A stretch of DNA of 64,000 nt, taken from positions 3,239-67,238 of IMG/VR virus record IMGVR_UViG_2827986130_000001; one strand, 5' to 3'. The DNA comes from a virus. Lineage: Duplodnaviria; Caudoviricetes. The position numbers and the translations under genes are program-made. The stretch's first letter is position 1; each line of letters starts with the position of its first letter. Positions 20,359 to 21,196 of the stretch are shown here, one piece after another. Below the pieces are notes generated by a model, which saw nothing but the letters and a program-made list of their open reading frames with translations, was not told the origin of the DNA and ran no database searches.

Positions 20359-20477
20359 CCCGCCCACTCGGCGGCCGTGTTCGCCGCCCCCATTCGATCC
20401 CGACACCGCTTTGCATCGCCCTCTTCGTTGCCTCCGTCGCGTTCATCGCGTTCGTGATCTTCGGTGGTGCCCGATGA
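20355..20477 (+). CDS. Small membrane peptide (40 aa, not in ORF track)
   Basis: MTRPLGGRVRRPHSIPTPLCIALFVASVAFIAFVIFGGAR; ATGA overlaps both sides. Confidence 0.55.
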   Translation: MTRPLGGRVRRPHSIPTPLCIALFVASVAFIAFVIFGGAR

Positions 20478-21196
20478 AACGCGTCATCGTTCTTGCGCCA
20501 TCACGGGACGTCGAGAATTCGTTGCGATCTGCAGCGGAAGCCGCCGGCTTCGATTCCGATGGGCAACCACTCCCACCGGAGTTTTGCTCCGCGCTCTACC
20601 GAGATCCCGACGCCATCGGTGTGATCCGGGCCACTTATTCCAGCTTTGCCGCTGTGACTTGCCGGAACTTCCGCAAGGCCGACGTCCGCAACATCCTATT
20701 CGTCTTGCTCGACAAGCAGGAAGCGCACCCCAGCTCGATGTCGCTGATCCTGAGATGTGGTGCCGACGACGTCCAGCCGGCGCCGATCGACCGCGACGAG
20801 TTCATGGCCAGGCTGAAGATGCTGGCGCGCCGCGGCGTCTACAACGACCACCTCATGATCCAGATGCCTGGCTGCGTCCTCGATGCCGAAACCGGGAACG
20901 TTGAAGGCGGCGGCAAGAAGCAGCACCTCACCACGAGCGAGGCCAAGGTGATGATGGCGCTGGCCCGGGAACCCGAACGCGCGCTGTCAAAAGACGAGCT
21001 CATGGATCGCCTCTACGGCGGTGAAGACGAGCCCGAACGCAAGATCATCGATGTCTTGATCTGCAAACTTCGCCGGAAGTTGGCCCAGATGAACGGCGGC
21101 CTCGATGTCGTCGAGACGGTCTGGGGCCGTGGCTACCGGTTCGTGCCCAAGGGTTTTGAGCCCAAGTACCGGAAGGACGTGAGGGCGCCGAGATGA
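20474..21196 (+). CDS. CtrA-like OmpR-family regulator with degenerate receiver domain
   Basis: [24 protein letters not shown]...ETVWGRGY closely matches CtrA [24 protein letters not shown]...ETVWGRGY. Confidence 0.88.
   Translation: [240 protein letters not shown]

Follow-up and report, generated by a model that had tools for sequence, protein, structure and literature searches.

CtrA is an essential response regulator of the Alphaproteobacteria, at the centre of the control of the cell cycle, motility and gene transfer agents; it binds TTAA-N7-TTAA sites, is phosphorylated through CckA-ChpT and is degraded by ClpXP. Here, we describe a gene for an apparently CtrA-derived protein in a 64-kb stretch of viral DNA (64,000 nucleotides; 'the window' hereafter), which represents most of a 67-kb IMG/VR record classed as a provirus (IMGVR_UViG_2827986130_000001, positions 3,239 to 67,238). 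The gene is located at 20474..21196 on the plus strand and encodes an atypical response regulator of 240 amino acids (plus a stop codon; protein P0001). The protein has the same domain order as CtrA (NF045991) and is homologous to it over its full length, with a near-identical recognition helix, wing and alpha2-alpha3 loop and a common beta5-alpha5 face. However, CtrA possesses an acidic pair (DD), the phosphorylated D51, a Thr/Ser, a Lys and a switch Tyr, whereas the phage protein has none of them. The two also differ at the C-terminus, where the phage protein has a basic tail of its own, and in their location, since CtrA is encoded by the cell's own gene and the phage protein by a prophage-borne addition.

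Aspartate-less receivers are an established class (PMC4395418), and several atypical regulators of the OmpR/PhoB family that contain such pseudo-receivers are constitutive dimers, according to the sections of PMC12632262 cited here. HP1043, ChxR, GlnR and RitR likewise combine a winged helix with a receiver fold lacking phosphorylation chemistry, but they are chromosomal, have their own regulons and are unrelated to CtrA, whereas the phage protein is a copy of a host regulator that exists beside the phosphorylatable original.

Phage copies of host cell-cycle regulators have also been found. Gp37 of roseophage RDJL Phi 1 (annotated ctrA; 456 bp, 151 amino acids) has, like P0001, a phage-encoded CtrA-type DNA-binding domain, and the relevant part of PMC5026251 describes this ORF as similar to 'a portion of CtrA'. 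RDJL gp37 and helix-turn-helix (HTH) genes of Rhodobacter RcSalem-type and Paracoccus phages share 42-47% identity with residues about 140-225 of P0001. Gp37 has no receiver-like domain, whereas the phage family described here retains a full-length, conserved pseudo-receiver. Gp222 of phiCbK is a GcrA homologue through which an Alphaproteobacteria phage taps the host cell-cycle circuit, and it was conjectured to favour the replicating state of the host (PMC3556154, in the portion cited); the prophage analysed here also contains a GcrA-like gene. In phages showing 'lytic deferment', including a Mesorhizobium phage, promoters with CtrA boxes are read by the host CtrA (PMC9437464); the text of that report does not treat phage-encoded CtrA, and the word 'receiver' is absent from it. 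These phages carry the boxes, whereas the phage described here carries the regulator and no box. No full-length phage CtrA with a pseudo-receiver was found in a literature search that left most subscription journals and supplements outside its scope. Both kinds, the aspartate-less receiver and the cell-cycle regulator copied by a phage, are known already, and their combination in a full-length phage CtrA appears to be new.

Identification of the gene and its relationship to CtrA

The preliminary description of this DNA, made from the sequence alone, had read 20474-21196 as a CtrA homologue with a dead receiver and no proteolysis tag. All the strings that it quoted, including the terminal VRAPR, are present in the translation. 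The start codon was assigned to ATG 20474 because the relatives share that Met (homologues of 239-241 amino acids open with Met-(Lys)-Arg-Val at this point) and because the longer frame, which would begin at GTG 20150, overlaps another gene in its upstream part; the GTG was rejected for these reasons.

The sole Pfam match of the protein is to the winged-helix DNA-binding domain Trans_reg_C (PF00486; residues 148-223, 20915..21142 on the plus strand), with 66.2 bits against a gathering cut-off of 26.2, identifying an OmpR/PhoB-type effector domain. The receiver model Response_reg (PF00072) was not matched at E<=0.1 in the Pfam search of the 240-residue protein. Among the NCBIfam models, the CtrA equivalog NF045991 gave the best score (105.9 bits, residues 64-221 only), followed by PhoB (69.9 bits); because the curated cut-off of NF045991 is 350 bits, P0001 is not a member of this equivalog family. 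In one Agrobacterium genome, P0001 matches CtrA best (101 bits), well ahead of the second-ranked regulator (52.8 bits).

The resemblance to CtrA is distributed unevenly along the protein. Columns at least 90% conserved in 41 CtrAs were compared with the majority residue of the phage family (69 relatives; see below). The family retains 24 of the 29 such columns in the recognition helix plus wing (23 of 29 in P0001 itself), 15 of 22 in alpha1-alpha2, 13 of 27 in beta4-alpha5 of the receiver, and 7 of 32 in the first half of the receiver (beta1-alpha3). Because 24 of 29 columns are kept in the helix and wing and 7 of 32 in the early receiver, a chance resemblance to CtrA is excluded. The recognition helix and the wing (ETVWGRGY) are therefore of CtrA type, and the close CtrA-likeness that had been noticed in this domain is borne out. 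The alpha2-alpha3 loop (YGGxDEP), which contacts RNA polymerase in PhoB-type regulators, is also common to the family and CtrA.

A quick maximum-likelihood tree was constructed from 46 proteins, comprising 27 sequences of the family out of a total of 73 (23 drawn from the 69 relatives and 4 from genomes), 14 CtrA-type sequences (5 genome loci and 9 database matches) and five other OmpR-type regulators. The family forms one clade with a stem length of 1.52 and a Shimodaira-Hasegawa-like approximate likelihood ratio test (SH-aLRT) value of 100, and this clade groups with CtrA against the five other regulators (SH-aLRT 99). Its exact position among the CtrA-like sequences is weakly supported (SH-aLRT 85-88). 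The tree and the in-genome match agree with the homology to CtrA proposed at the outset, and P0001, as judged from these comparisons, is derived from CtrA.

The nearest neighbour of the family in this tree (SH-aLRT 85) is P0117, a CtrA-like protein with a degenerate receiver encoded on a metagenome contig. By eye, it has IHDT in place of EDD and VVIEEA in place of LLDL, and it may have a Glu at the phospho-site.

The pseudo-receiver domain

The receiver region (residues 1-122, 20474..20839 on the plus strand) was delimited from a structural model, structural alignment and residue mapping. Two alignments were used for the mapping. In one, 19 relatives and 5 true CtrAs were aligned by MAFFT; in the other, profiles of the 69 family members and of the 41 true CtrAs were compared by hhalign (probability 100, E 1e-47, 233 columns, 32% identity). 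Both yielded one and the same residue mapping. The acidic pair Asp8/Asp9 of CtrA corresponds to Pro9/Ser10 in P0001, the phospho-site Asp51 to Ile51, Ser79 (the T/S position) to Leu79, Lys101 to Ala103, and the switch Tyr of GADDY to Val100. All five catalytic or switch residues are absent, which places the domain among the pseudo-receivers as defined in the cited part of PMC12632262 and sets it apart from the CtrA receiver.

These replacements extend throughout the family. Position 51 is occupied by Ile (36 members), Leu (19), Phe (6), Met (3), Val (2), Tyr (2) or Cys (1) and by Asp or Glu in none of the 69, and position 103 is Lys in none. The acidic-pair columns retain a Glu at position 9 in 3 of the 69 members, and an Asp in 15 and a Glu in 3 at position 10. 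An Asp or Glu occurs three residues past the phospho-site (position 54, a non-conserved residue of the beta3-alpha3 loop) in 16 relatives but not in P0001. The absence of an acidic pocket and of a phospho-Asp, which had been proposed from the sequence, is thus upheld by both alignments, and the search for a conserved phosphorylatable Asp, which would have contradicted that proposal, found none. The protein is predicted to be unable to receive a phosphoryl group on the canonical Asp.

The model nevertheless indicates that the fold is retained. An AlphaFold2 model based on the 69-sequence alignment has a mean predicted local distance difference test (pLDDT) score of 90.6, with blocks of 93-97 over residues 1-120, and its DSSP topology shows five beta-alpha units, i.e. 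a (beta-alpha)5 receiver fold. When residues 1-122 were compared with known structures by VIA-align, Z was 19.4 for the KdpE receiver (117 residues superposed with a root-mean-square deviation of 1.5 A), 17.6 for HP1043, an atypical orphan regulator, and 17.5 for 4qpj_C (titled as a phosphotransferase-receiver complex). A Z of at least 8 was obtained for 841 of 999 chains, as expected if the modelled domain has a CheY-like fold. The whole model was aligned by Foldseek to full-length OmpR-family regulators, including the atypical HP1043, RitR and GlnR.

Mean pairwise identity within the family is 0.44 in the receiver versus 0.53 in the DNA-binding domain. The most conserved receiver block is beta5-alpha5 (G96, A97, D98, D99, Q101, E109, A112, R113, A116 and R120), in which Q101 is invariant (69 of 69 members). 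G96, A97, D98, D99, E109, A112, R113, A116, R119 and R120 are common to CtrA, but Q101 is not. According to the cited part of PMC12632262, members of the OmpR/PhoB family dimerize through alpha4-beta5-alpha5; many pseudo-receivers use this surface as well, and several of these dimerize without phosphorylation. The term 'dead receiver' used in the preliminary description is therefore apt for the catalytic residues, all of which are gone, but not for the domain as a whole, which, to judge from its conservation and the near-invariant beta5-alpha5 block, is under constraint and not simply dead. It offers a case for studying how a pseudo-receiver originates and is selected, with the dimer face kept and the active site lost.

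A search of 1.84 billion cluster representatives with the 122-residue domain alone returned only 48 proteins at E<=1e-3: 41 with lengths of 226-257 amino acids, 6 shorter ones and a single repeat protein (P0134) of 1519 amino acids. Because the matches are this few and mostly of 226-257 amino acids, the pseudo-receiver is rare and tied to one architecture. In P0134, 14 separate stretches match the part of the pseudo-receiver formed by residues 47-93 (E 1.7e-11).

The C-terminal tail

In alignment, the CtrA C-terminus is replaced by a family-specific basic tail (21143..21193 on the plus strand), in which G227 is at least 90% conserved. Caulobacter CtrA is degraded by ClpXP via its C-terminal Ala-Ala. 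P0001 ends in APR (Pro-Arg) and only 1 of the 69 family members ends in Ala-Ala, so the reported lack of an Ala-Ala tag holds, and the phage protein may perhaps resist host proteolysis. The CtrAs of four genomes that carry the phage gene and of an Agrobacterium genome end in SA or TA, not AA, and the Caulobacter degron rule may therefore not transfer to these hosts.

Distribution of the family

In total, 69 relatives with 36-70% identity to P0001 were collected. They are full-length or nearly so, match PF00486 only and have intact frames. Organism names were available for 13 of them (12 Mesorhizobium and 1 Aquamicrobium). Six are labelled 'CtrA' by the Joint Genome Institute (JGI), and pipeline labels such as 'CtrA' or 'response regulator' can mislead analyses of regulons and copy numbers. 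Matches past rank 69 are mostly ordinary CtrAs aligned only over the C-terminal 54-67%, together with a few proteins of 160 amino acids that match PF00486 only. Three proteins of this length (P0086, P0087 and P0099) consist of a CtrA-like winged helix only, with 44% identity over 54% of the query, and possibly represent an RDJL-type domain-only form.

Among 400 scored genomes of the family to which the Agrobacterium reference genome belongs, 388 contain a match at E<=1e-20 (one of these 388, G079, is unpublished). Near-full-length matches were found in only 4 of the 400 genomes among the matches listed, and the other 146 of the 150 listed matches cover no more than the C-terminal half, like those to CtrA. 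All four carrier genomes also contain a genuine ctrA (419-424 bits against NF045991). The protein is therefore an accessory, prophage-borne extra copy and not the CtrA of the cell. No close full-length relative was found in INPHARED, in which all 89 matching records show <60% identity. A profile search of genome contigs examined 80 loci of at least 600 candidate stretches, and these were mostly C-terminal-half matches with no new close member of the family.

The order of early genes around the CtrA-like gene is the same in all three related IMG/VR proviruses and all three bacterial genomes that were compared (20 kb per genome context, with flanks of about 10 kb). The gene is an early gene of prophages of a conserved phage family and not a host paralogue, and it belongs to the core early genes of a temperate phage lineage of Mesorhizobium-like Rhizobiales.

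Position in the prophage

A gene for a CI-like repressor (HTH_3 plus Peptidase_S24; 16186..17154, minus strand) is divergent from the operon that holds the CtrA-like gene. The first gene of this rightward early operon encodes a Cro-like HTH protein (17221..17448, plus strand). It is followed on the same strand by a GcrA-like gene (18087..18722; PF07750, E 2.1e-14; phrog_16311), a homologue of which was found upstream in five of the six related contexts with this query, and by a conserved early gene with no assigned function (18719..19222), which lies upstream of the CtrA-like gene in all six. A gene for a RuvC-like resolvase (19385..20044, plus strand; phrog_159, a weak match with E 4e-5) and a second unassigned gene complete this part of the right arm.

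A scan of positions 15800-22000 identified no terminator-like site on the plus strand, i.e. none between cro and the CtrA-like gene. Because the gene is situated behind cro with no intervening terminator, it is most simply regarded as part of the early lytic transcript, as far as its position can indicate.

Possible function

The following sequence of events is proposed. On prophage induction or infection, the early operon would produce the CtrA-like protein, which would dimerize via its conserved alpha4-beta5-alpha5 face without phosphorylation and occupy CtrA-type (TTAA) sites on the chromosome of the host. The effect would be to uncouple the CtrA regulon, which covers replication licensing, division, motility and pili, from the host CckA-ChpT phosphorelay. 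We tentatively favour, at somewhat less than even chances, the reading that P0001 is an OmpR/PhoB-family transcription factor, carried by a phage and descended from CtrA, with an aspartate-less pseudo-receiver and that it acts, independently of phosphorylation, on CtrA-type sites of the host. The preliminary description had proposed a signal-independent, stable mimic of CtrA or a dominant-negative competitor for its sites. The CtrA derivation and the lack of a phospho-Asp and of an Ala-Ala end are consistent with this proposal, to which the prophage setting and the existence of a phage family, both absent from it, have been added.

Binding to CtrA boxes is predicted from the conservation of the recognition helix. 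The window contains no exact TTAA-N7-TTAA (0.02 expected by chance) and one copy with one mismatch (1.66 expected), and the exact box is also absent from the six related loci. When one mismatch is allowed, the half-site of CtrA, TTAACCAT, occurs 11 times in the window versus 11.75 expected and is not enriched. Since canonical boxes are absent from the phage, any CtrA-type sites read by the protein would be in the host.

Several points weigh against the proposed action on host sites. The absence of exact boxes from the window carries little weight given the chance expectation of 0.02. Of the 29 conserved columns in the recognition helix and wing, 5 differ, and Y155, F174 and R222 of CtrA are replaced family-wide, which may have altered the target or the way in which RNA polymerase is contacted. 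Even within the early operon, the gene could have its own promoter and be expressed from it in lysogens. Furthermore, a constitutively active CtrA would, by analogy with Caulobacter, oppose the co-encoded GcrA-like function, which would favour an antagonist over a mimic. The two forms of the proposal draw on different features: the conservation of the loop that faces RNA polymerase leans towards an active mimic, and the presence of the GcrA-like gene alongside leans towards an antagonist favouring a replicating host.

A more doubtful extension, which we regard as possible but improbable on balance, is that the phosphorylation-blind CtrA and the GcrA-like protein constitute a two-part cell-cycle takeover module. 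On induction, this module would replace the phosphorelay-timed CtrA/GcrA oscillator of the host with a phage-set state, e.g. arrested division with licensed DNA synthesis.

If such a module exists, P0001 would be the first viral transcription factor to pose as a master regulator of the bacterial cell cycle and yet escape control by the kinase, the phosphatase and perhaps the protease of that regulator.

Previously known phages read host CtrA via binding sites, or they encode GcrA or no more than a DNA-binding fragment of CtrA. Through a copy of CtrA that is blind to phosphorylation, the phage described here may override host cell-cycle control. A conserved, unphosphorylatable, full-length CtrA provides a natural experiment in which the CtrA regulon can be studied apart from CckA-ChpT, and it could possibly serve as a tool, i.e. 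a constitutive or dominant-negative CtrA for rhizobia.

Direct repeats and other motifs in the window

The protein could instead have drifted to non-canonical phage sites, such as late or replication promoters, and control phage genes. OmpR-type proteins bind direct repeats of 10-11 bp, and the window contains two arrays of CGGACAnnnCC with an 11-bp period, located at 30213-30251, inside the 3' end of the primase/helicase gene, and at 32506-32534, about 170 bp upstream of the HNH-TerS-TerL packaging operon. The position of the second array would suit a phage-specific regulator, as would a middle or late activator role for a core early gene. Similar arrays were detected in the related loci L085 (17873-17910 and 19661-19698) and L114 (16919-16956 and 18520-18557), and a CGGAA variant in L115 (19709-19746); each array consists of 3-4 direct repeats, and the second is located about 1.6-2.3 kb downstream of the first. 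However, no arrays were found in L083 and L084, the two contexts out of six that have the closest CtrA-like proteins (65% identity). The repeats track the type of primase, whereas the recognition helix, which is the same as that of CtrA, is invariant among carriers with differing repeats. The arrays were therefore set aside as targets of the CtrA-like protein; a place in the replication or late module is more likely for them, and they may be origin iterons or late-promoter sites. We consider control of phage genes through drifted sites unlikely.

Two short motifs are scarce in the window: GANTC occurs 75 times versus about 377 in first-order Markov simulations, and TTAA 14 times versus about 42. 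This shortage may reflect just host-like composition and coding constraints. In a locus from a Geminicoccaceae metagenome-assembled genome (L004), an exact TTAA-N7-TTAA was found at 3629-3643, about 100 bp upstream of a CtrA-type gene that matches over almost its full length with 35% identity; the box fits an autoregulated ctrA.

Further alternatives

The protein might act at the protein level, pairing with the receiver of host CtrA via alpha4-beta5-alpha5 or titrating ChpT or proteolysis adaptors, so that mixed dimers lower or redirect CtrA activity. The most conserved block of the pseudo-receiver is indeed the face common to CtrA (GADD...E..AR..A..RR), and if CtrA activity fell while a phage GcrA-like protein was present, the host would be shifted into replication, in line with the idea put forward for the phiCbK GcrA (in the cited portion of PMC3556154). 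Nevertheless, a pure decoy would not need the observed conservation of the helix and wing, and the ChpT-contacting surface (the alpha1 side) is among the least CtrA-like parts of the protein, lying in the region that keeps so few of the conserved columns. This role is somewhat less probable than control of phage genes.

A further possibility, which is improbable, is that the gene serves lysogenic conversion or superinfection exclusion: made in the lysogen, the protein would damp CtrA-dependent flagella and pili and thereby block adsorption of other phages. In a Roseobacter, loss of CtrA phosphorelay function led to loss of flagella and thus to phage resistance (PMC13392355, in the part cited), a precedent that fits such a role. 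However, the gene resides in the cro-headed rightward operon, on the side normally silenced by a CI-type repressor, and no sigma-70-like promoter was found in 15800-22000 with a scan whose consensus was of E. coli type only. The loss of all catalytic receiver residues would be accounted for if P0001 were a captured host ctrA in decay and without function, but this is very improbable, given intact frames in 69 divergent relatives, conserved synteny, a receiver conserved almost like the DNA-binding domain, the invariant Q101 and a confidently predicted fold.

Other genes of the window

Downstream of the CtrA-like gene, a neighbour with no assigned function (21327..21815, plus strand) is conserved in all six contexts; its true start is probably ATG 21339, and a protein Atlas search returned no usable match for it. 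A frame of 49 codons (21193-21342) that overlaps both genes is probably not a gene, its counterpart being absent from the six related loci. The next genes, both on the plus strand, encode a C5 cytosine methylase of 602 amino acids (21932-23740) and a protein of 851 amino acids (23737-26292) in which a phage helicase family (phrog_16) and an N6/N4 methylase domain are joined; the start of the latter overlaps the stop of the former. The right arm continues with primase-helicase-like, HNH, TerS, TerL and portal genes.

The left arm contains genes for RecT, a RecE-like exonuclease and an SF1 (superfamily 1) helicase. The RecT (11013-12185, minus strand) has a C-terminal stretch resembling ribosome modulation factor (PF04957, E 4.1e-6, just below the cut-off), which is an odd pairing.

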